IMG/VR virus record: IMGVR_UViG_3300046804_004458
Span: 15,660 to 79,659 of that record
DNA length: 64,000 nt
From: a virus
Direction: 5' to 3' (one strand)
Shown: piece by piece, positions 1-17,457 of the stretch
Layout of the letters: every line of letters begins with the position of its first letter
How positions within the stretch are numbered: the first letter of the stretch is position 1
Position numbers and translations under genes: made by a program
Notes under the pieces: model-generated
Told to the model about the DNA's origin: nothing
The model's input: the letters and a program-made list of their open reading frames with translations, nothing else
Database searches by the model: none

Positions 1-60
1 GTTATAAAAAAATCAGACAGATGATTAAGAATTTACAAATGATAAAACGACTTCAGAAAT

Positions 61-486
61 ATGGAACAACAGAGTAAATATTATACCCCAGACATTTCAG
101 AGCTACATATTGGATATGAATGTGAACATACTACCTGTAAAGGTGCATTTGATATAAACCTTGAAGATGATATAGTAAAAGATAAACTAACTGTAGATGA
201 TCTTAGAAAGTATCTTAGGTATTGTGGTATACATGGTGATAATGTAGGAGACTACATAAGAACTCGCTACCTTGATCAAAGTGATATAGAATCATTAGGT
301 TGGAAGTTTGATGCTTATAAAGCAGATGATTATAAATATTATTTAAATTCCTATGCATTATATTTTCCATATGCTGATGAAGAACCATTACTTATTACAC
401 ATAATAAAAGTGCAATCTTTTTCGGAGAATGTAAATCTATTAATGAGCTAAAAATAGTCATGAAACTTATTGGAATAACAGTATAA
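61..486 (+). CDS. hypothetical phage protein; its last ~13 codons probably come from the downstream GIY-YIG element
   Basis: 141-aa ORF. The C-terminus ELKIVMKLIGITV has a second version, LRKIMEWLNIK*, at 1273-1308. Confidence 0.8.
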   Translation: MEQQSKYYTPDISELHIGYECEHTTCKGAFDINLEDDIVKDKLTVDDLRKYLRYCGIHGDNVGDYIRTRYLDQSDIESLGWKFDAYKADDYKYYLNSYALYFPYADEEPLLITHNKSAIFFGECKSINELKIVMKLIGITV

Positions 487-1272
487 TGTCGTAATATTGT
501 ACTGCAACAGTACCTGATAAACTCCAACAACTAGCCAACCAATATAAAAAACACCAGACACAGGAAGTCCTCTCTCATCAGAGTACTGTTGCAACCTGTG
601 TTCTGGTGTAACTATATATGTTATGAAATCAGGAATTTATACAATAACAAATATTCTAAACGGAAAGATTTATGTAGGACTATCAAAAAATATTGAACAA
701 AGGTGGGCAGTTCATAAAAGTCATTTAGATAAAAAGAAGCATAGTTGTAAATATCTCCAGCATGCATGGGATGCACATGGAAAAGAGTCTTTTCTATTTG
801 AAATATTAGAAGAATGTGAGGAACAGTATTTATGTAGTCAGGAGAATTGGTGGTGCAATATGTTAGATAGCCATAATCCAAATAGAGGATATAATGATAA
901 ACCTACATCTCCTAACTGTAAGTGTAAACAGTCAGATGCCACAAAATATAAATTATCAGAGATAGGAAAAAGATATACTGGAAAAAATCATCCGTTTTAT
1001 GGTAAAAAATTATCAAAAGAACATGTAGCAAAAAGAGTAAAAAAAGTAGAAAAACTTGTATATAAATACTCAATAGAAGGAGAATTACTTAACACGTATA
1101 AAAGTGTAAAAACTGCAGCAGAAGAAAATGGTGTATCAATTAATAATATATCCGCATGTTGTTCAGGAAAACAAAATACTAGTAAAGGATGTGTATTTTT
1201 ATTTACAGAAATATTTGAAATAAGAAAAGATAAAAGAAATAGAAATCCAATAAGTGGAAAATATGAGAAAAA
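448..1272 (+). mobile_element. free-standing GIY-YIG homing endonuclease cassette (replacement 3' end, promoter, structured leader, endonuclease gene)
   Basis: Flanked by two versions of the C-terminus of ORF 61-486. Contains a promoter-like TTG-N19-TAATATTG (470-499). Boundaries are inferred. Confidence 0.55.
499..609 (+). promoter_or_regulatory. structured 5' leader with two interleaved inverted repeats
   Basis: 503-518 pairs with 577-593 and 551-564 pairs with 595-609, each with one bulge. 499-513 also forms a self-hairpin. Confidence 0.6.
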
Positions 1273-1297
1273 CTCCGGAAGATCATGGAGTGGTTAA
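623..1297 (+). CDS. GIY-YIG homing endonuclease with NUMOD3/NUMOD1-like DNA-binding modules
   Basis: SGIYTITNILNGKIYVGLS..R..H; GYN; NHPFYGKKLSKEH; YKYSIEGELLNTYKSVKTAA...ISACCSGKQNTSKG. Confidence 0.92.
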   Translation: MKSGIYTITNILNGKIYVGLSKNIEQRWAVHKSHLDKKKHSCKYLQHAWDAHGKESFLFEILEECEEQYLCSQENWWCNMLDSHNPNRGYNDKPTSPNCKCKQSDATKYKLSEIGKRYTGKNHPFYGKKLSKEHVAKRVKKVEKLVYKYSIEGELLNTYKSVKTAAEENGVSINNISACCSGKQNTSKGCVFLFTEIFEIRKDKRNRNPISGKYEKNSGRSWSG

Positions 1298-1308
1298 ACA
1301 TAAAATAA
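1273..1308 (+). pseudogene. orphaned original 3' end of gene 61-486 (LRKIMEWLNIK*)
   Basis: Aligns with LKIVMKLIGITV*. Its TAA (1306-1308) lies 1 nt before the next ATG (1310). Confidence 0.55.
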
Positions 1309-1309
1309 A

Positions 1310-1687
1310 ATGACAGTAGAGCAGTATAAAGAAAAGGTACCTGAACACAAAGATCTTGAAGGAGATGCTCTTTGGAATGCAATGGAAAACTATATGTTGC
1401 TGCATGGAGAAACTCATAATTATACAGATAGTGAGGGTAGAGAAAGAATAAGATTTCCTTGGACACCTGAAGATGGTGATGGAACTCCTATAGGAATATG
1501 GGATGTAGTAAAGAATGAAGCAGTAGACAGTAAACAGGAATGGAAACCTCCTACTAAACAGTCTGCAATATTTATAGTATTTGACGTTTCAGGAAAAGAA
1601 CCTATGAAGATTATAGGTGAGCCTATTCCTATTATAGAAACAACAGAAGGTTTAAAAATTTATAAAGATGGAACAGAACAAAAATGA
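1310..1687 (+). CDS. hypothetical protein
   Basis: 125-aa ORF in a tightly packed operon. Confidence 0.75.
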   Translation: MTVEQYKEKVPEHKDLEGDALWNAMENYMLLHGETHNYTDSEGRERIRFPWTPEDGDGTPIGIWDVVKNEAVDSKQEWKPPTKQSAIFIVFDVSGKEPMKIIGEPIPIIETTEGLKIYKDGTEQK

Positions 1688-2081
1688 CATGTTTGAGGAC
1701 ATGAGAGCAGCCGGAAGTCAGCTACCTGATATAGTAGAAACTCTCAAAAAAAGAGGCTGGAAAACTTATGAGCACCACGATAACTGGATACATCCTAATG
1801 TCTTAGGTCAATTCACTACACATCAGGCATATGAATACAAAGGAATGATAAATGTACCTGCATCAGAAGCAGTGAGGTTTCTTAGCAAGGCTTTGATAGA
1901 AGATCGAGCATATTGGGATGGATGGGTTGCAAATATTGCAATGTCAATATACGATGAGTATATGGAGAAGCTCCCAAACACCAATACTGTAGTAAAAGGT
2001 GCATTGCTTGAGATATTTAATAATGGTGCAGACAGGTTTCTGAAACTTTTGACAGCAGAAAAAACAACAGACAATGAGTAA
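1668..2081 (+). CDS. hypothetical protein
   Basis: 137-aa ORF in the same operon. Confidence 0.75.
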   Translation: MEQNKNDMFEDMRAAGSQLPDIVETLKKRGWKTYEHHDNWIHPNVLGQFTTHQAYEYKGMINVPASEAVRFLSKALIEDRAYWDGWVANIAMSIYDEYMEKLPNTNTVVKGALLEIFNNGADRFLKLLTAEKTTDNE

Positions 2082-2154
2082 AGAGAAAAAAGAACAGAAG
2101 TATTATAACGGCATTGCTGTTGATAGCCAGGAGGAGGTAATGACAAAAAAATAG
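2074..2154 (+). pseudogene. orphaned 5' stub of the nuclease gene 2930-3517 (MSKEKKEQKYYNGIAVDSQEEVMTKK*)
   Basis: 18 of the first 24 aa are identical to the N-terminus of ORF 2930-3517. Its ATG overlaps the end of the upstream gene. Confidence 0.85.
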
Positions 2155-2185
2155 TTGTTAAATTAAATCAACTGTTCTATTTTTG
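2155..2185 (+). promoter_or_regulatory. Bacteroidetes sigma-A-type promoter (-33 TTG / -7 TAnnTTTG) inside an imperfect hairpin
   Basis: TTG at 2155-2157, 20-nt spacer, TATTTTTG at 2178-2185, ATG at 2200. Confidence 0.65.
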
Positions 2186-2199
2186 TATAAAATAATATT

Positions 2200-2964
2200 A
2201 TGCAAAAAATAGATAAAACAGGATTGAGATTTGGTAAATTATTAGTTATTTCAAAGGAAAATAATGATACCTATTTATGTAAATGTGATTGTGGTGTAGA
2301 AAGACTATTTAGAGATAAAAATTTATGTAAAACAGGATCTAAAAGTTGTGGTTGCAATATGGGAAAATGGGGCAGAGGTATAAATTTTCTTGGAATGACC
2401 AGAAAACTACTTACCTGTACTGCTAAATTACCAGATGATAAATGGGAGTGGACATGCAAATGTGGTAATAAAATTATTCTTAGTGGATGGAGAAAATATA
2501 ATATTAAATGTTGTAGTTTATCTTGCCCTGAATTAAATAAAGAAAGAGGTGCTTCTCATAGAAAACCAAAAAATAGAACTATAAATGAGCAGTACAATAG
2601 TCATAGATATAATGCAAAAATTAGAAATCTAAATTCTTTACAAAAAGAAGATTGGTTAAAAATTGTTTTTTTGCCCTGTTATTATTGTGGTGAAACTGAC
2701 ACAAGAAATTATGCCAAATATCCAGCTTATAGAAAAAAACTGAAGAATACTTTAACAGAAGATATTATTGCAGAGTTTGAGGTAAAAATGAACGGAGTTG
2801 ATAGATTAGATTCAACTAAAGGTTATGATATAGAAAATTGTGTTCCTTGTTGCGGTACTTGTAATTTTATAAAAAGTGATTGTACAGAAGAAAAATTTAT
2901 TATTCATATAACTAAAATATATAAACATTATGTCAAAGGAGAAAAACGAGAAAAAATATTATAA
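2200..2964 (+). CDS. HNH homing endonuclease with N-terminal Cys-rich (CxCxCG) repeats
   Basis: DKTGLRFGKLLVI..YLCKCDCG..SKSCGC plus a second degenerate copy; CYYCG...NGVDRLDSTKGYDIENCVPCCGTCN. Confidence 0.88.
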   Translation: MQKIDKTGLRFGKLLVISKENNDTYLCKCDCGVERLFRDKNLCKTGSKSCGCNMGKWGRGINFLGMTRKLLTCTAKLPDDKWEWTCKCGNKIILSGWRKYNIKCCSLSCPELNKERGASHRKPKNRTINEQYNSHRYNAKIRNLNSLQKEDWLKIVFLPCYYCGETDTRNYAKYPAYRKKLKNTLTEDIIAEFEVKMNGVDRLDSTKGYDIENCVPCCGTCNFIKSDCTEEKFIIHITKIYKHYVKGEKREKIL

Positions 2965-3517
2965 CGGAATACAAATTGATAGTATTGAGGAACAAATGAC
3001 TGTTATGTACTTTGAGGAACTTATAGAGGCCGGGTATGTAGAAAAACTTGAAAGAGCTCCTACCTATACTCTTTCTGAAAGGTTAGAGCATAGATATACC
3101 CAAGTAGTAGAAATGAAAACAAAGACAAAAGAAGTTGAAAAGAATCAGGTACTTCTTGAATCTCATGTTTACACTCCTGAGTTTCTTGTAAACTGGACAC
3201 ATGCAGGAGCTGCATTATTTGTAGACAGGATGAATAAAAAGAGCAAAATAGATGCACATTTTATCGGTGCTTATCGTACTCTTATTGAAGTAAAACCAAA
3301 CTTTGATCAGAACAATATGACCCGGCTTTTTAAGATCAACCAGAAGTGGATGTGGGAAAAACATAAGCTATTTGTAAATCTTATACAACCTCATAAGTTG
3401 TTTGAGCAAACATTCACTCCAACTGCTTATTTAAAAACTGCAACAGGAAAGCAAAAAGTGATTCATTGGAAAGTACGTTCAATGGAAAATTATATTACAT
3501 CCTTAAATAACAACTAA
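2930..3517 (+). CDS. PD-(D/E)xK nuclease, DUF1064 / resolvase-like
   Basis: YNGIQIDSIEE...YTPEF...LIEVKP motif pattern. Confidence 0.65.
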   Translation: MSKEKNEKKYYNGIQIDSIEEQMTVMYFEELIEAGYVEKLERAPTYTLSERLEHRYTQVVEMKTKTKEVEKNQVLLESHVYTPEFLVNWTHAGAALFVDRMNKKSKIDAHFIGAYRTLIEVKPNFDQNNMTRLFKINQKWMWEKHKLFVNLIQPHKLFEQTFTPTAYLKTATGKQKVIHWKVRSMENYITSLNNN

Positions 3518-3522
3518 TAATC

Positions 3523-3732
3523 ATGGCAAAGACAAAAAAAGCAACACCGGATACACCTGAAGTAAAAGTATTAAAAGAAATAAAAGATACTATCCTTAAA
3601 CAATGGAAAGAAGCTAATGGGGCTATGGACCAAACACACAGGTTGGGCAATAATATATACAATACTGCCATAGCTGATTGTATTAGTGCAATAAATACAA
3701 AAATATTTAGGATAGAAAATAAAAAGAAATAA
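3523..3732 (+). CDS. small basic hypothetical protein
   Basis: 69-aa ORF that fills the gap between its neighbours. Confidence 0.7.
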   Translation: MAKTKKATPDTPEVKVLKEIKDTILKQWKEANGAMDQTHRLGNNIYNTAIADCISAINTKIFRIENKKK

Positions 3733-3733
3733 T

Positions 3734-4819
3734 ATGAATATTACAAAGAAAGTAGAACAATCACGTATATCAGAGCAAACCTATAGAGGTTTAAAAGACA
3801 GGCTTTCATACAGCTCCATCAAAAAGTTTGATTCAGACAGACAAGCTTTTTACAAAGAAATGGTTCTTGGTGAAGTAAAAGAAGATAAGATATCCATCCC
3901 CATCATTATGGGACACCTGGTACATACTTTATTATCAGGTATGGACTTTGATGAGAAGTTTCACATAGCTGTAGCTAATGAGCCTAAAGGACAAATGGCT
4001 GATCTTGTAAATAACCTGTATAACAGAACTTTAAAAAGCATAGACAAGGAAACAGGTATACAAACAGATAGTTTTGAGACAATCTTTATGGATGCAGTCA
4101 CAACTACTAAGTATGACTTTAATATGCAGGAAGTAGCATTTAAAGGGAAAGATGCAACTAAGATCTTAAGTATGTTTACAGGTGATGCTGAAATATATTA
4201 CAAAGAAAAGATGGCATCAGTAGGAAAAATAATTGTATCTGTACCAACAATACAACAAGCAGAAAGACTGGTAGAGAAAATAAAAGCACACAATTATACT
4301 CAGTATTATGCTACAGTACAAACAGGTGATGGAATAGAAGTGTTTAATGAGCTACCTATTTTGTTTGAAATAAATGAGGTACCATATAAAGCAATGGTTG
4401 ATAAGGTAATAGTAGACCATGAGCATAAAACAATAACACCGGTAGATTGGAAAACAAGTTGGGATAATGAGAATCCTCAGCAAGCCTATACAAAGTTTGG
4501 CTATTACCTACAAGCAGCTATGTATGACTATGCATTACATGAGTGGGCCAAGGAGCACAAAATGGAAGATTATACTATCTTACCAATGAAGTTCATCTTT
4601 ATAGATACTGCAGGGTTTGCTGATCCAGTTATTTTAGAACTAAAAAAGGATGACCTGGACAAGGCTGTAAGTGGATTTACCCTAAGAGGTTTTAAATACA
4701 AAGGTATCTCTGATCTGCACCATGAAATAGCATGGCATGTAGAGACAGGTATATGGTCTTCTGCTATGGATATTTCCAAGAATAATGGCAGGGTTATACT
4801 TGATTTAAAGTATGAATAA
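3734..4819 (+). CDS. PD-(D/E)xK exonuclease (RecE/Cas4-like recombination nuclease)
   Basis: LSYSSIKKF, GHLVHTLL, KAMVDKVIVD...VDWKTS, YYLQAAMY; directly upstream of recA. Confidence 0.85.
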   Translation: MNITKKVEQSRISEQTYRGLKDRLSYSSIKKFDSDRQAFYKEMVLGEVKEDKISIPIIMGHLVHTLLSGMDFDEKFHIAVANEPKGQMADLVNNLYNRTLKSIDKETGIQTDSFETIFMDAVTTTKYDFNMQEVAFKGKDATKILSMFTGDAEIYYKEKMASVGKIIVSVPTIQQAERLVEKIKAHNYTQYYATVQTGDGIEVFNELPILFEINEVPYKAMVDKVIVDHEHKTITPVDWKTSWDNENPQQAYTKFGYYLQAAMYDYALHEWAKEHKMEDYTILPMKFIFIDTAGFADPVILELKKDDLDKAVSGFTLRGFKYKGISDLHHEIAWHVETGIWSSAMDISKNNGRVILDLKYE

Positions 4820-4848
4820 CAGTAAGAAATAGGTGTTAAAATGCTTGC

Positions 4849-4885
4849 AAAAGGGCTGTAAATATTGTATATTTATAGCCCTTTT
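4849..4885. terminator. 17-bp-arm hairpin (possibly bidirectional terminator) overlapping the putative recA promoter
   Basis: aaaagggctgtaaatat-tgt-atatttatagccctttt; TTG(4845)-N20-TATATTTA(4868). Confidence 0.65.
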
Positions 4886-4911
4886 CTATTTTAAAAAATC
4901 AAACAAAACAT

Positions 4912-5904
4912 ATGGCAAAAGCAGCAACAACTGAGCAAGAAAAAGATATTCTTGCTGAAAAACTTAAGGCACTGGAAAAGAAATTTGGTGCAGGTACAAT
5001 TATAATGGGTAGAGATACCAAAGAAGAGTTAGAAGTAGTAGATAGTGGCTCATTGACACTTAATCTTGCTACTAACATTGGTGGTTTACCTGTAGGTAAA
5101 TTAATAGAGCTATTGGGTATGGAATCCTCAGGTAAATCTACTCTTACTCTGCATGCAATATCCAATTTTCAAAAGCTGGAAGGCAAATGTGTATTGGTAG
5201 ACTATGAGCAATCATTTGACAGAACCTATGCAACTGCTCTGGGAGTAGACATGGATAAGCTAATTATCATTCAACCAGAGTGTATGGAAGATGGTTACAA
5301 CATGACAGAGGAGTTAATTAAGACAGGTGATATAAGACTTGTAGTACATGACTCTCATACAGCAGCTATGCCAAGAAAAGTAGTAGATGGTGAAGTTGGT
5401 GATGTAACTATTGGCCTACAAGCAAGGTTAAACAGCCAAGGTCTTGGCAAAATTAAGCCACTTTTAAGGGATAATAGGTGCACTTTAATGGGCATATCCC
5501 AGATAAGACAGAATGTAGGTGGTTATGGTGACCCTAATCAGAGCACTGGTGGTCTGGCTTGGAAGTTCTACTCAGATATGAGGATGAAGGTAAACAAATC
5601 TGTTGATAAGGAGAATGAAGGTAATAAGACAACTGTAGAGATAATCAAGAATAAATGTTCAGCACCATTTGGCAAAGCTGAGTTTGTCATTGATTGGGGA
5701 AAAGGCATAAGCCGGATGATGGAAATTATTAGCCTGGCACAGGATTTGAAATTCATAACAAGATCCGGGGCCTGGTATACTTTACCTAATGTAGAGAAGT
5801 CTGTACAGGGTGAGCAGGGGGTACTTCAGTTTTTATCTGATAATCCTGAGTATGCCACGGAAATTGAAAGACAAGTATTGGAGAAGTTGAAAGAGTTGAA
5901 GTAA
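4912..5904 (+). CDS. recA: RecA/UvsX recombinase
   Basis: GSLTLNLATNIGGLPVGKLIELLGMESSGKSTL (Walker A), VDYEQSFD, GLQARL, QIRQNVG, TGGLAWKFYSD, IIKNK, SGAWY. Confidence 0.97.
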   Translation: MAKAATTEQEKDILAEKLKALEKKFGAGTIIMGRDTKEELEVVDSGSLTLNLATNIGGLPVGKLIELLGMESSGKSTLTLHAISNFQKLEGKCVLVDYEQSFDRTYATALGVDMDKLIIIQPECMEDGYNMTEELIKTGDIRLVVHDSHTAAMPRKVVDGEVGDVTIGLQARLNSQGLGKIKPLLRDNRCTLMGISQIRQNVGGYGDPNQSTGGLAWKFYSDMRMKVNKSVDKENEGNKTTVEIIKNKCSAPFGKAEFVIDWGKGISRMMEIISLAQDLKFITRSGAWYTLPNVEKSVQGEQGVLQFLSDNPEYATEIERQVLEKLKELK

Positions 5905-6543: not shown

Positions 6544-6552
6544 TTGCTGACA

Positions 6553-6930
6553 ATGAAAAGAGGAGTATTAAAAAGAAATAACAGTTCTCTAAAAAGAGGT
6601 GGGCCTATTAAAAAACGGCCCATCTCTCAAGAGAAAACAGAGCAAAAAAAGCAGACAAGAGAGAAAGATATTGCTTTCTACACTGGCATATGGAACAAGA
6701 GGCCACATATCTGTGGTAACTGTGGAAAGCATCTGGGGAAAGAAATGAAGAGCTTTCACTTTGATCATCTGATTGAAAAGAGTACACATCCTCAGTTTAG
6801 ATATGAGGAAGATAATATCTTATTAGTTTGCTTTGACTGTCATGGTAACAAAACAAATGGATTTCCTGGTGTTGTACATAAAAAGTGTATAGATAAAGTA
6901 TTTCAGAAGTTTTTTGAAAAAAAGAGCTAA
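6553..6930 (+). CDS. HNH endonuclease (NinG/Rap-like)
   Basis: CGNCG...HFDHLIEKSTHPQFRYEEDNILLVCFDCH; ATG at 6553 preferred over TTG at 6544. Confidence 0.85.
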   Translation: MKRGVLKRNNSSLKRGGPIKKRPISQEKTEQKKQTREKDIAFYTGIWNKRPHICGNCGKHLGKEMKSFHFDHLIEKSTHPQFRYEEDNILLVCFDCHGNKTNGFPGVVHKKCIDKVFQKFFEKKS

Positions 6931-14600: not shown

Positions 14601-17457
14601 TACCCTCAAATGTTTTTATAAACTTTTGTGCAAGTAATGCAGTTTTCAGATAATCTATTCTTCCTATGTTTTTAGGAAATTCTGCACCTTTATCTTTATC
14701 TGTTAAATATTTACTGATATTGGTTAATTGTTCATCCATAAATTTTAAAAACTCACCATATGCAGCAGTTCTTGAGCCATGACTTATACTGGTAGAAAGT
14801 ATTTGATATAACTTATCTACTCTGTCAACAGTTTCATCCCTTACTTTAAACTGGGCTACCTGTGTCAGTTTACCTGCAACATCTTTAACCCATCTTGTAC
14901 CAGAAATATGTCTAAGGTCTTCAAGTATGTTAGAGAACTTATCTATACCTTCATTTATCTCAGCAAGTTTATGGTCTAATAATTCTTCTATATTAGGAGG
15001 TACTATATTTTCTGCAGGTTTTTGTAACTCAGCATCTTTTATAGGATTGCCTACTTTAAACTCATCATTTATTTCTTTTAACCGGTCTTTGTTACTAAGT
15101 GGTGTAGGTACAAGTGCTTCTATAAGAGTATAATTATCAGATGGTCTACGTGTATGCTCCCCATCATCTTCTGCTCCAATGATTTCTGTTACCTTATTAC
15201 CCTGTGCATCTGTAATAGTTTTACGTTTAAGATAAACATGTTTAGTAGCAAGTCCGTCATTTGGGTCTACAAACCACCCTTGCAATTTAAGCATCTTGGC
15301 ATAAGACCCTATTTGTGCACCATGCTGTTGTGTTTTAGTTATTGCAGTTATGGGTTTTTGGGAATTAACAGTATTTTGTAATATTCTACTTGTAGCCTTA
15401 AGACCATATGGTGCCCTGTATGATGCAATTCCTCTTTTATTCCAAGAAGATTTAATGTCTACTACTTTCATGTTACCATAAGGATCTATAACAAGAAGGT
15501 CTATTGCACCTGCTACCAATGACTGGTCATCTGCTACAATTACCTGTGGTAATACTATTGAACCATCTGCAGTAAGTGCACCGTAATATTGAAGTAAGAT
15601 TGAGTATACATCTGCTTTTACATCTTCAGATAGTGTTTTAGTTTCTATATCTTTATACTTTTTGCCCAGACAAATATCTTGCATTATCTGGTCTACATCA
15701 TTGCCCCAGTCCCTGTTTGCTTCAAACTCGTCCTTAAGATCCTCTGGAAAATCAACACCTATAGCAGTTGTTAGTGATGTATATGTTGTTTTACCATCAC
15801 TACTTTTATAAACGTGAGTTTTTTTATCAAGAGTATATCTTTTATGTGGTTTAAAATATACTTCTTCAATTATCTTAGCTTGCATAGGAGTTGCTTTTTT
15901 AAAAGCATTCCTTGCTATTTCTTCCTCATCTTCATCTAACTGATAGTAAATACCTTTACCACCTAAAGAAGGTTGTAATTTGCTTATATTAGCATCTAGT
16001 ATTGATTTAGCTATTTCCTGGTAGGGAGTAAGTTCTTCTTTACCTTTAAACAACTGTTTAATAAAATCCCATAACCTTTGCCATAGAGACTTTGCCTTTT
16101 TATCTTCAAACATTCCAACTACAGCATCTGCTACAAGTTTACCTGCAGCTTCTCTTGCTATTTTATCTTCATCAATAGAACCATCTTCTTTTTTATACTC
16201 ATCAAGTTTGCCATATTGTTTCATGGTCTCCTGATAAACATCTCTTTCTTTTACATCTTTGAGTAGGTCTCTAAGCAAAGTAGAGTTAGCCGGTAGCATA
16301 TCTATAAACAGGTGTGCAGCTTCTTCTGATAATGTTTCTATGCCTGCTTTGCCGTTGGCAACCCTGATAATTTTATTAAGGGTATCTGTCATTGCAGCAG
16401 CACTAATACCTTTAGAAGTCATTATTTCCTGTACTTTTTCTACAGATATACCTAGTTTATTTAAGAAGTTTGTAACCTGTTCATCCAACTTTGTATCTAC
16501 CTCCCTACCGGAAGATGTAAGTTGATATAGAAAAGAGCCTAGTTCTGTATCTTTCTTCCATCTCCAGGTAGTCTCACTCATCTTTTGTACAGTATACCCC
16601 TGAGATTCTTTTTCTCTCATAGCTTTACTCATTTCTGCTCTTCTTGCCATGAAGTCCTTTGCAGTAACTGTTTCTTCATTCCATCCCTTTTCCATACCAT
16701 ACCTCTGCCCACCTGCAGTTTCTCTGGCACCACTCCAAGTAGCTCTGTCTACAGTTATTTTTGGTTGTTGCTGCAGTATAAGCTTTGTGGTATGTACAGC
16801 CCTTGGTAAAGGGGATACAAATACTTGAGATATTGTAGTACCTTTTAGTTGATTGCCTACTTTGTTTGCTTGTGCAGTACCTTTATCAGTAAGCATGGTA
16901 TCATCTGTCCGGAGGTTACCATCTGCATTGTCATCTGTCTCTCCATGTCTGATGAAGAAGATGTCTCCATTGGCTCCTTTTACTTTCTCCATTTCACCTG
17001 GTTTTGTACTTACATCCAGGTACATCTCAGGTGTGAGTTTTGATAGGTCCTCTGGTCTACCCATTTTATCCCATAGAAGCAAGAATTTGAGGACAGTAGA
17101 GTGAGTTACTACTGCACTGTTCCCAGGTGCAGAGTCCAGTATCCTTTTGCCTTCTTCTATGGTCCTGGTCTTTACATCATTGAATGACTCCCCACCACCG
17201 ACTTTGGCATTAGGATCAGACAATATCAACTTATCTATCACCGGTTCAAACTGTTTTTGGTTTTTACCTGAGAAAGTACCAGTATTCCAAGCTCTAAGAC
17301 TGTCAGATATCTCAACCTTACCTGGATACCACATAGACAAAGCTTTGCCAAAATCAGGTGTCTTTTCATTATTCTGTTGCCAAATAGATAATGCTTTACC
17401 TACACCAAATATGTCTTCAAGTTGTATATACTCTTTAGTTTTTACCGGACAACCCAT
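11602..17457 (-). CDS. large virion cargo protein: circularly permuted histidine phosphatase, degenerate zincin, PD-(D/E)xK nuclease and helical C-terminal region
   Basis: RHGETDDN, SPLPRA, GGES, VVTH; TLSEEAAH; AGAIDLLVIDPYGNMKVVDIKSS; adjacent to the virion RNAP. ATG at 17457 preferred over the ORF-track start at 17484. Confidence 0.8.
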   Translation of the reverse strand: MGCPVKTKEYIQLEDIFGVGKALSIWQQNNEKTPDFGKALSMWYPGKVEISDSLRAWNTGTFSGKNQKQFEPVIDKLILSDPNAKVGGGESFNDVKTRTIEEGKRILDSAPGNSAVVTHSTVLKFLLLWDKMGRPEDLSKLTPEMYLDVSTKPGEMEKVKGANGDIFFIRHGETDDNADGNLRTDDTMLTDKGTAQANKVGNQLKGTTISQVFVSPLPRAVHTTKLILQQQPKITVDRATWSGARETAGGQRYGMEKGWNEETVTAKDFMARRAEMSKAMREKESQGYTVQKMSETTWRWKKDTELGSFLYQLTSSGREVDTKLDEQVTNFLNKLGISVEKVQEIMTSKGISAAAMTDTLNKIIRVANGKAGIETLSEEAAHLFIDMLPANSTLLRDLLKDVKERDVYQETMKQYGKLDEYKKEDGSIDEDKIAREAAGKLVADAVVGMFEDKKAKSLWQRLWDFIKQLFKGKEELTPYQEIAKSILDANISKLQPSLGGKGIYYQLDEDEEEIARNAFKKATPMQAKIIEEVYFKPHKRYTLDKKTHVYKSSDGKTTYTSLTTAIGVDFPEDLKDEFEANRDWGNDVDQIMQDICLGKKYKDIETKTLSEDVKADVYSILLQYYGALTADGSIVLPQVIVADDQSLVAGAIDLLVIDPYGNMKVVDIKSSWNKRGIASYRAPYGLKATSRILQNTVNSQKPITAITKTQQHGAQIGSYAKMLKLQGWFVDPNDGLATKHVYLKRKTITDAQGNKVTEIIGAEDDGEHTRRPSDNYTLIEALVPTPLSNKDRLKEINDEFKVGNPIKDAELQKPAENIVPPNIEELLDHKLAEINEGIDKFSNILEDLRHISGTRWVKDVAGKLTQVAQFKVRDETVDRVDKLYQILSTSISHGSRTAAYGEFLKFMDEQLTNISKYLTDKDKGAEFPKNIGRIDYLKTALLAQKFIKTFEGIMNLNVFGDAKQAITLSKVVQKLNDVSQDVAYAVEQYNIQGIKETTSRKNVTLDMLTNWVKEDKDISNNELNFGTLGNSGVVILENADKRVKARYLAAKELAEQMINELVLPVAEKLRAANGGKITANMYDFMMRKDRNGKKMGQIISQIGRTYREMQDKVYSELTDLQGNVLTYKEVPDVKTASKEDIEHNIMLYYKKEAQRKFESAEEFDEEGNVSSGEYHKYSDEFLAKREKYMYKEEYGGALKRVNKTWKKVGASYRWEFYRGATPEEEAEIIAFKRKYFREVPHYMSAEVGKDGKPTGKVTEKYSAWFPKREYVEVRNTVKSTGEVIADENYYKLMNPTTELGRAQKEFYMMYVDTMGKIQDMLPTNAAEIFKRGAIPTLGANWVQKLADGNINLGVLIANAVKAQFETPVAMDKDVSANAGSVKQTIPLLYVTPLQSQLQINKINSALEELEKKKSSISEHDYAVEKDRLNNLLKKEKNKMKATDLHPDLSIGLTEMLKAATQFQAKSDIEDDLQAVNSQLLNMEFDQEVRKFGVVVGREKVAGIKSNAYKRFNAWLDMCFYHDPLMNRSTADAVVKKLMGATSALGVSFNVFGWVNNAITGSVNNFLDSLGSDFFQASAMRRMTAVEFPKAMTGYMRATMEHKVKGSTYEHKKAGSKYEWLCDHFHAIEHYEAAVRGQVNWLAKAGGYSGMEAGEYMMQSKVANAILASIPVKNSKTGEEVMLYDAYEFDEKTGHGKLKDGFELTDKEKHAITNRIRETIDRIHGNYSPINKTMFEREWWGQLIMQFHKWVWPNFKQRFQAGKYDENLGGGMDIEGRYRTLWGFITKMHSLADLTSGDAWSRLTPHQKNNMKKDLGDAIILATLFVTAHIIKSLADGIPADDPNLKRWIHWLQTQNDRSIAEFGLFVPPIGVVEAYKLFKNPIAGAGSIKEFAELLQASYQYPFLDDEHRYYQRGPYEGQSHLTKQARDVFPILKEYNRIQSLITTNSFYVK

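Follow-up and report, generated by a model that had tools for sequence, protein, structure and literature searches.

A probable homing-endonuclease cassette that brings its own gene start into a phage gene

The window, the whole stretch of 64,000 nucleotides analysed here, comes from a virus (IMG/VR record IMGVR_UViG_3300046804_004458, positions 15,660 to 79,659), and within it a gene for a 195-amino-acid protein is interrupted by an insert of 856 nt (positions 2147-3002) composed of a leader, an HNH nuclease gene and a replacement for the first 73 nt of the interrupted gene; the original 73 nt are left as an orphaned stub on the other side of the HNH gene. The favoured explanation, with a probability of about 0.7, is that this insert is a free-standing homing-endonuclease cassette that homed into a probable recombination-nuclease gene, its own copy replacing the gene start, and that it homes by using the stub and the gene body as arms. 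The upstream gene, the stub, the insert with its parts and the target gene all lie on the plus strand.

Geometry of the insertion and endonuclease-free alleles

As regards its limits, the insert was delineated by blastn breakpoints against the relative L003: window 2079-2146 aligns with L003 4006-4073 and window 3003-5904 with L003 4074-6967, the two breakpoints being adjacent in L003 (4073|4074); the insertion point lies between nt 73 and 74 (codon 24/25) of the 195-aa gene. In a second relative, L004, positions 4001-4479 are collinear with window 1668-2146, and the upstream gene and the sequence of the stub run unbroken into an intact target gene. The first-pass annotation had predicted that an empty allele would join a stub-like 5′ end directly to position 3002 onward, and this is exactly the arrangement seen in L003 and L004. 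The element is missing from every relative examined (L001, L003, L004, L011 and L097-L101), all of which have the target gene, and similarity to all of them stops at 2146; the first reading had noticed an abrupt end, after Met-Thr, of the similarity between the two gene starts.

The gene end is duplicated on either side of the HNH gene, with the copy at 2074-2146 orphaned and the one at 2930-3002 continuous with the gene, and the HNH gene has an ORF of its own, in a frame different from that of either copy. Measured against the endonuclease-free relatives, the insertion is clean, and the target gene is invaded without an intron or intein, as had been proposed from the sequence and is now borne out by the comparison with L003 and L004; an Rfam search of positions 1-4000 gave no intron or other RNA family at E ≤ 1. 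The start borne by the insert restores the full 195-aa frame, so that the insert supplies a working 5′ end.

Contigs from runs X1, X2, X3 and X5, which drop rare variants, include none that joins 2146 to 3003. An apparent joint from 2217 to 2625 in the sample contigs, supported by 21 letters of another contig, was discarded. A distant blastn search of a phage collection returned a single match of 125 nt, to the uncultured phage cr50_1.

The stub and the upstream gene

The left flank is a gene of 137 aa with unassigned function (1668-2081), whose stop overlaps the ATG of the stub; its homologue in L004 stands immediately before the intact target gene, and it may serve as left homology arm. The stub (2074-2154) has 26 codons and consists of the resident nt 1-73 (2074-2146) plus two Lys codons and a stop that come from the insert; its coupling to the upstream gene persists and is the same as in L004. 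This coupling and the rest of the ORF layout had been described in the first reading, and the ORF list confirms them.

As for its sequence, the stub is identical to L004 at 64 of 72 nt, to L001 at 59/72 and to L003 at 56/72, while only 49/72 are shared with the new copy in the window itself; compared to L004, the sole amino-acid change is at residue 2. The resident start belongs to an allele type recognizable by IAVDSQEE. The similarity between stub and gene is not due to chance, because the stub is recovered with E = 3.5e-5 in a tblastn search that uses the 195-aa protein as query, and because in a scan of flank similarity over 64 HNH loci the window scores 92 against a median of 28.

The replacement gene start and its origin

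The replacement for nt 1-73 of the gene occupies 2930-3002, and its first 35 nt (2930-2964) overlap the tail of the HNH gene in another frame, as first reported. Likewise, a recount agrees with the earlier figures for the two starts: 18 of 24 residues are identical, 16 of these are not Met, and 9 of the 16 are coded differently. At the nucleotide level, 49 of 72 positions are identical and 23 differ; the alleles diverge also at codons 22, 24 and 25.

Regarding its origin, the new copy is of the allele type with IQIDSIEEQ, found in L011 and L101, and it is identical to L011 at 58/72 nt and to L004 at 47/72. The orphaned copy (64/72 with L004) matches the close relatives, whereas the attached one is of a foreign type. 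The segment 2957-3018, which spans the insertion point, is identical at 61 of 62 positions to natural alleles, free of the endonuclease, in other lineages (L011, L101 and L097-L100), with 100% identity to L101 over 2960-2990, against a whole-gene blastn background of 75% to L011 and 80% to L101; it would fit a donor-allele or co-conversion tract. None of the sampled alleles matched the new copy in its first 27 nt.

The first-pass annotation had described the new 5′ end as recoded. The recoding is not purpose-made, because the near-identity of 2957-3018 to L011 and L101 means that the cassette carries a different natural allele, with no special recoding. That annotation had also reasoned that endonuclease-free alleles should resemble the stub and not the copy at 2930; in fact both kinds of empty allele exist, so that the outcome it had named as a refutation is half realised. 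Endonuclease-free alleles with the new block are those of L011 and L101, and a donor bearing the homing-endonuclease gene (HEG) is not among the known alleles. It should be noted that the target gene is a mosaic, being L101-like up to about 3150, L001-like over 3155-3260 and L011-like over 3386-3440; therefore, ordinary recombination also shapes it.

The HNH gene and its leader

The HNH gene (2200-2964) codes for a PacI-like nuclease of the beta-beta-alpha-metal type, 254 aa long, with two N-terminal Cys-rich repeats; the ORF matches PHROG families 3322, 1035 and 374 (endonuclease/HNH and endonuclease VII), and Pfam and NCBIfam gave no match for the protein. The profile of its family matches the restriction endonuclease PacI (PDB 3ldy) with E = 3e-8 across the motif CxxC...DR.D...N...CxxCN..K. 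The ORF is intact and retains all the residues invariant in the family, and the tail overlapped by the new gene start lies beyond the conserved HNH domain. The protein is presumed to be a free-standing homing endonuclease.

At least 532 relatives occur in viral contigs, the closest being 44% identical, and no close relative was found in the viral or metagenome contigs searched. The window HNH was found as a single instance, represented by the source record and by Logan contigs of one sample; a near-identical protein is on record from a second contig (P0121, 10.5 kb). Of 80 distant HNH loci, none has a homologue of the 195-aa gene next to it, and the same cassette was not found in another gene background for the window HNH.

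As for the leader, an AU-rich hairpin extends across the left junction (2143-2186), with a folding energy of -9.9 kcal/mol and z = -3.0; only 2 of 200 shuffled sequences fold as well. The first reading had placed here both a hairpin and a Bacteroidetes promoter: the hairpin stands, while the promoter is reduced to a mere consensus match, because the window has no excess of TAnnTTTG (80 occurrences against 91 expected). Its one match in 2000-3100 lies at 2178-2185, inside the hairpin, and a sigma-70 scan of the spacer 2147-2199 gave no site. Region 2143-2186 may act as the leader or the promoter of the HNH gene; compared with other loci, the leader had no meaningful match, except for 20 of 21 letters with L097. 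Among the sequencing runs, no RNA run is listed as containing the sequence.

The interrupted gene

The protein encoded at 2930-3517 is tentatively assigned a PD-(D/E)XK fold from the AF2 model (pLDDT 92) and its structural matches, which include TnsA (Z 6.9), VRR-NUC (5.8), I-Bth0305I (5.3) and Hjc (3.6), all with Z below 8; other matches are several PD-(D/E)XK-type nucleases, interspersed with a small number of unrelated chains, for example mitoribosomal proteins. A Foldseek search of the PDB returned nothing at E ≤ 0.001, a profile search of solved structures returned nothing, and Pfam and NCBIfam gave only DUF6448, in Pfam and below threshold (17.5 bits against a cut-off of 27). Among 24 homologues, down to 37% identity, the invariant residues are S18, E21, Y81, E120 and K122; E21, E120 and K122 provide an acidic residue followed by an E-x-K motif, and Y81 opens the stretch Y-T-P-E-F, in which T82 and F85 are nearly invariant. 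The gene presumably needs the replaced segment, because the family-invariant S18 and E21 lie in it.

A PDDEXK exonuclease (3734-4819) and RecA (4912-5904) belong to the same module as the target gene, whose slot is occupied in L005 by a RuvC gene. The protein is probably a recombination or junction nuclease.

Related cassettes with the same design

The HNH family recurs with the end-replacement design elsewhere, at both 5′ and 3′ gene ends. Locus L059 has a 26-aa 5′ stub, then an HNH gene, then a full gene overlapping the HNH tail. In L028, L111, L112 and L075 the design applies to the 3′ end of a methyltransferase: the gene has a replacement C-terminus, followed by the HNH gene and by a relic C-terminal ORF that overlaps the HNH tail. 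Between L028 and L111 the replacement end and the HNH reach 87% and 89% identity, against 56% for the methyltransferase bodies; the cassettes of L111 and L112 are identical, but their relics agree at only 64%. Methyltransferases of both end types exist without the HEG. Such structures do propagate, because one and the same methyltransferase-cassette junction is seen in more than one gene background, with relics that differ; for the element in the window, mobility is argued by analogy, since searches of viral and metagenome contigs gave no close relative of its HNH.

Two further observations concern the same region and family. L112 has a second relic, and an extra 560 nt relative to L111; and a GIY-YIG gene in the window (623-1297) is a mirror case at a 3′ gene end.

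Proposed mechanism and alternative explanations

In the proposed cycle, the HNH protein would cut stub-type endonuclease-free alleles near nt 73/74, while the allele carried by the cassette would escape cutting, since 23 of its 72 positions differ, several of them beside the junction. The double-strand break would then be repaired on the cassette-bearing genome, with the upstream gene and the stub as left arm and the gene body as right arm, and every homing event would recreate the order stub, HNH, gene. Neither an intron nor an intein nor a ribosomal bypass would be required, since the gene is interrupted so near its start that the cassette can carry all of the missing end.

An unlikely alternative, although the least unlikely of those considered, is that the structure is the product of a one-off accident, in which an intergenic HNH gene upstream of an allele of the L011/L101 type was brought in by one event of break repair that had homology on its right alone, copied leftwards into donor DNA and was illegitimately sealed to the broken resident end; the new copy would simply be the donor allele, the stub a decaying relic, and the whole would not home as a unit. 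This is consistent with the single instance found and with the lack of obvious homology at the left junction, and homology on the left would often be missing, since the upstream genes vary widely among relatives. The product would be identical to that of the cassette model, so that structure alone cannot separate the two; however, the methyltransferase cassettes show the same junction in different backgrounds with different relics, and the stub and body, once formed, offer homology on both sides of any stub-type allele. It is much less probable that the stub persists because it has its own function, for instance by acting as a coupled leader peptide through which ribosomes are delivered or HNH expression is set: it is intact, it overlaps the upstream stop, it ends 45 nt before the HNH start inside the hairpin, and L059 has a stub of similar size (26 aa), but its conservation is fully explained by inheritance from the resident allele, and the lone change at residue 2 relative to L004 fits a recent insertion.

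The two remaining possibilities were rejected. A local tandem duplication of the 5′ end that diverged in place, with the HNH gene landing between the copies later, would account for two copies that point the same way and are both 73 nt long; yet the copies are 68% identical to each other, while the new copy reaches 98-100% with alleles of other phages (2957-3018) and the stub 89% with L004. As the stub is closest to L004, L001 and L003, and the new copy to the other allele class, the two come from different lineages and divergence in place is ruled out, leaving this origin highly improbable. An assembly chimera, that is the misjoining of two co-occurring phage strains, has the lowest probability of all: metagenome assemblies can be chimeric, and the sample does contain a related strain whose sequence departs at 2092 and continues as a RuvC-type gene, but Logan contigs bridge both junctions and cover 2063-2458, 2063-2826 and 2450-3500 with 0-1 differences. 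These contigs come from two runs which, sharing a single freshwater sample, are not independent samplings. In addition, the HNH ORF, the overlap and the reading frames are coherent, and a second contig has the near-identical HNH protein.

The homing cassette remains the preferred reading, and a wider generalization of it is more tentative, with odds somewhat against it: end-replacement homing may be a general, as yet unnamed, route by which free-standing phage endonucleases enter coding sequence, in which a resistant natural allele of a few dozen codons at the start or the end of the gene is carried, the displaced end becomes the next homology arm and the resistant block persists after loss of the HEG. 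If this were true, the 62-nt block, 98-100% identical in the otherwise 67-80% identical, HEG-less L011 and L101, would be the footprint of past invasions, and endonuclease sweeps would drive short allele blocks at gene ends across phage populations.

Comparison with known systems

The cassette is a phage version of a trick already known in fungal mitochondria and in phage T4. The mORFs of fungal mitochondria occur in atp6 of Allomyces macrogynus and in atp6, atp9, cox2 and nad3 of Glomus sp. (PMC3630166, through which the work of Paquin et al. 1994 on mORFs is cited here), and partial duplications of atp6 and cob are reported beside free-standing HEGs (PMC6279837, PMC7487136). As in the window, an intronless endonuclease ORF sits in a protein-coding gene and the element brings a foreign, divergent gene end, while the native end is an unexpressed relic that matches close relatives and the inserted end clusters elsewhere (PMC3630166). 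The mORFs, however, encode LAGLIDADG or GIY-YIG enzymes, belong to organelles and replace the 3′ end, often with an in-frame fusion; instead, the window cassette has a PacI-like HNH of a phage and replaces the 5′ end including the start codon, with an out-of-frame overlap with the endonuclease tail.

The MobA element of T4-like phages, which comprises mobA with the gene 60 N-terminal extension, HomR and a bypass cassette (bioRxiv 10.1101/2022.08.31.505936, which also gives the account of Bonocora et al. 2011 on MobA followed here), is similar in having an HNH homing endonuclease within a phage coding sequence without an intron or intein. It also has a divergent copy of the target segment (67-81% DNA identity), which contains the cut site of MobA itself (HomR), and a new start of the downstream ORF that lies within the HNH ORF in another frame, with an overlap of 8-32 nt in MobA. 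In that system, the gene is split into two polypeptides, the parental segment is deleted and a 50-nt ribosomal bypass is required; in the window, the gene is in one piece, the parental segment is kept as the stub and no recoding signal is needed.

As for the intronless homing of the free-standing T4 endonucleases SegF, SegG and MobE (PMC2988022, PMC2790892), the endonuclease-free allele of a neighbour gene is cut, the flanking donor markers are co-converted and the donor is protected by natural differences, as would apply here. Those enzymes are intergenic and have no duplicated gene end, whereas the window cassette is inside coding sequence with the duplicated start in its presumed co-converted tract. 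Finally, the enzyme resembles PacI (PDB 3ldy) in the catalytic domain of the HNH family, with two CxxC pairs and the motif DR.D...GY...N...CN..K; PacI is a small stand-alone restriction enzyme, and the window HNH adds two N-terminal Cys-rich repeat modules and the context of a mobile element.

In conclusion, the cassette would show that a homing endonuclease can inhabit a protein-coding gene without intron, intein or bypass by carrying the missing gene end. It would also explain orphan mini-ORFs and seemingly duplicated gene ends that annotation pipelines overlook, and suggest how endonucleases could drive the swapping of short allele segments, and mosaicism, at the ends of phage genes; signatures made of a stub plus an endonuclease may mark likely cleavage sites of uncharacterised site-specific nucleases. 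In this way it links three literatures, those on fungal mORFs, on T4 MobA and on intronless homing.

Organization of the locus

On the plus strand, a gene for 137 amino acids (1668-2081) ends in a stop that overlaps the ATG of a 26-codon ORF, the stub (2074-2154); after a 45-nt gap there follow the 254-aa HNH ORF (2200-2964) and the 195-aa target gene (2930-3517), which starts 35 nt inside the end of the HNH ORF in a different frame. Over the first 24 codons, the stub and the 195-aa ORF have 18 identical residues and 49 of 72 nt in agreement; of the 16 identical residues other than Met, nine are spelled with different codons. The first-pass annotation had given the ORFs, the 18/24 residues, the 9/16 codons and the 35-nt overlap, all of which were right on recount.

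The virus record containing the window is 79.7 kb long and comes from an uncultured virus; blastn of the window against a phage collection returned a sole match, of 125 nt, to the uncultured phage cr50_1, and the stretch is present in freshwater metagenome runs. Two runs of one freshwater sample yielded Logan contigs that span 2063-2458, 2063-2826 and 2450-3500 with 0-1 differences. A strain co-occurring in the same sample departs from the window sequence at 2092 and continues as the RuvC-type gene known from L005, the locus of a related phage, so that related phages with different alleles share a habitat; loose contig ends at 2092 occur in runs X1, X2 and X5. No contig of an empty allele turned up there, which is uninformative, since contigs drop rare variants.

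Regarding alleles that lack the HNH gene, at locus L004 the target gene is intact and directly preceded by a homologous upstream gene (54% amino-acid identity); in L001 and L003 it is likewise intact, behind different upstream genes. By blastn, L003 4006-4073 corresponds to window 2079-2146 and the adjacent L003 4074 to window 3003, onward to 5904, and L004 4001-4479 is collinear with window 1668-2146. The adjoining breakpoints and this collinearity identify 2147-3002 as a clean insertion at gene nt 73/74; it measures 856 nt, and its end is a complete second copy of gene nt 1-73. The empty allele had been predicted as a stub-like 5' end joined directly to the gene body, and this is what L003 has (to 2146, then 3003 onward).

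Origin of the two gene starts

The stub resembles the starts of the intact alleles (64/72 nt identical in L004, 59/72 in L001, 56/72 in L003), and the new copy (2930-3002) matches them poorly, at 39-47/72. From nt 28 on, the new copy is near-identical to another natural allele class: the block 2957-3018 is 61/62 identical to L011 and 2960-2990 is 100% identical to L101, with whole target genes only 75% and 80% identical, respectively. The HNH gene is absent from all nine loci with this allele block (L008-L011, L097-L101). Given this near-identity to natural alleles in HNH-less loci, the replacement end described at first as recoded reflects an ordinary allelic difference between phage lineages and is not purpose-made. 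The further expectation that empty alleles resemble the stub, and not the version at 2930, holds in part: both kinds exist, the stub type being the majority among the 120 homologues listed.

Nucleotides 1-27 of the new copy, located in the overlap with the non-conserved HNH tail, had no match among the sampled alleles. The rest of the target gene is a mosaic, L101-like to ~3150, L001-like over 3155-3260 and L011-like over 3386-3440. At the insertion point, a block of ~45-60 nt (window 2957-3000; L011 5028-5071; L101) is 100% identical in three lineages with flanks at 67-80%; it may be the footprint of co-conversion driven by an endonuclease that was then lost.

The HNH protein and its leader

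Pfam and NCBIfam gave no match for the 254-aa protein; PHROG endonuclease/HNH families did match it, and a profile built from it and eleven homologues matched the restriction endonuclease PacI (3ldy; E=3e-8) across two CxxC pairs and the motif DR.D...GY...N...CN..K. Its sequence is that of an intact HNH nuclease of the PacI type, with two Cys-rich repeats at the N-terminus. The family occurs at >532 phage loci, the nearest relative being just 44% identical.

As for the leader, a hairpin at 2143-2186 is more stable than shuffled sequences (z=-3.0) and contains the sole TAnnTTTG match in 2000-3100; this motif is not enriched across the window, and the spacer between stub and HNH gene has no sigma-70-type site. 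A promoter there is a guess.

The target gene

The 195-aa protein has at least 120 homologues, and its predicted model (pLDDT 92) has as top structural matches TnsA (Z 6.9), VRR-NUC (5.8), I-Bth0305I (5.3) and Hjc (3.6); further PD-(D/E)XK-type nucleases match, interleaved with a few unrelated chains such as mitoribosomal proteins, and every Z is below 8. Residues E21, Y81, E120 and K122 are invariant across the family. S18, also invariant, and E21 fall within the replaced 24 residues, which the gene therefore needs. The genes that follow encode a PDDEXK exonuclease and RecA. In L005 (4221-4679) and also in L006, a RuvC resolvase gene (Pfam RuvC, 24.1 bits) occupies the slot of the 195-aa gene; in L005 it retains the first six codons of the target gene (window 2074-2092), which places the swap junction inside the 5' coding end. 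From the structural matches, the invariant residues, the neighbours and the RuvC gene in the same slot, we infer that the 195-aa protein is a recombination/junction nuclease.

A third nuclease gene, for a 128-aa classical HNH protein (Pfam HNH, E=4.6e-9), lies downstream of RecA (window 6544-6930). L003 has an unrelated HNH_3-type endonuclease gene (2250-2984) ~1 kb upstream of its intact target gene. In these phages, the region around the target gene is an endonuclease-gene hotspot.

Proposed mechanism

The comparisons show how the insert is built, that its nuclease is intact and sporadically distributed, that the two gene starts differ in origin, and that the design recurs; in structure, they support a putative mobile cassette. 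Double-strand-break repair is the established model of homing (PMC2988022, PMC2790892); following it, the HNH protein would cut stub-type alleles near gene nt 73/74, and the broken ends would invade a cassette-bearing genome with the upstream gene and stub as left arm and the gene body as right arm. Copying across the gap would bring in the donor's gene nt 1-73 along with leader and HNH gene, and the recipient's own gene start would turn into the new stub. The cassette allele differs from the stub type at 23/72 positions, some of them in codons 22, 24 and 25 next to the junction, and these differences would confer immunity.

The same structure would result from a single origin, by repair with homology on one side only and an illegitimate join; no second copy of the window's HNH gene was found in viral or metagenome contigs, which fits such an event, and we consider it unlikely.

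The same design at other loci

For 64 HNH genes of the window's family, 400 nt of upstream and 340 nt of downstream sequence were compared at the translated level; the window's score was 92, with a median of 28, and three further loci stood out (L059, L028, L075). Another case at a 5' end is L059 (2257-3579), from an unrelated phage. Its 26-aa stub (2257-2337) precedes the HNH gene (2316-3047); a 181-aa gene (3034-3579) follows, which begins much like the stub (common ...VMAHPSR) and shares 14 nt with the HNH tail. The C-terminus of the 181-aa protein is weakly NUMOD-like.

In L028 (1052-2499) and L075 (1174-2646), a complete N6/N4 DNA methyltransferase is followed by the HNH gene and then, overlapping the HNH tail, by an ORF of 47-51 aa in which the methyltransferase C-terminus is repeated. 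The L028-type cassette recurs in L111 (77-1536) and L112 (2474-4497), and the orphan C-terminal ORFs begin at the conserved SAM-binding motif. L028 and L111 have 56% identity in the methyltransferase body, 87% in the attached C-terminus and 89% in the HNH. For L111 and L112, identity is 100% in the attached end and the HNH, 88% in the bodies and 64% in the relics; at the DNA level it is 97-100% over the replacement end plus HNH gene, as compared with 70-82% in the body of the gene. In this set, replacement end and endonuclease clearly move as a unit into different gene backgrounds; methyltransferases without the endonuclease gene occur with either C-terminus type. In L112, a further partial relic (4423-4497) and ~560 nt beyond what L111 contains suggest two events in succession, and L106 has several tandem C-terminus-like matches.

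Finally, the window's GIY-YIG/NUMOD gene (623-1297), in the region 313-1312, has the mirror, 3'-end arrangement. Window 61-312 is 94% identical to L005 3547-3798, and 1271-1312 is 93% identical to L005 3947-3988; the replaced stretch between these L005-like flanks comprises a divergent 3' part of gene 61-486 and the GIY-YIG gene. Beneath the GIY-YIG tail, one base before the ATG of the following gene, there is an 11-codon relic of the native C-terminus (1273-1308), which ends in ...WLNIK like L004 and L005.

Comparison with known systems

We found no account in the literature of the 5'-end replacement form in phages. Fungal mitochondrial mORFs carry a foreign C-terminus (atp6, atp9, cox2, nad3) with the native end left downstream (PMC3630166; also PMC6279837, PMC7487136); the native end is of close-relative type, and the inserted one groups with other sequences (PMC3630166). 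In the T4-type MobA element, the HNH gene lies within a topoisomerase gene and brings along a divergent copy of the target segment (67-81% DNA identity) containing its cut site; the start of the downstream ORF shares 8-32 nt with the HNH ORF. In contrast to the window's cassette, MobA breaks the gene in two, with deletion of the parental segment, and depends on ribosomal bypass (bioRxiv 10.1101/2022.08.31.505936). The window's cassette combines features of mORFs and MobA: a phage HNH, replacement of the 5' end including the start codon, a parental end that is kept, and no recoding.
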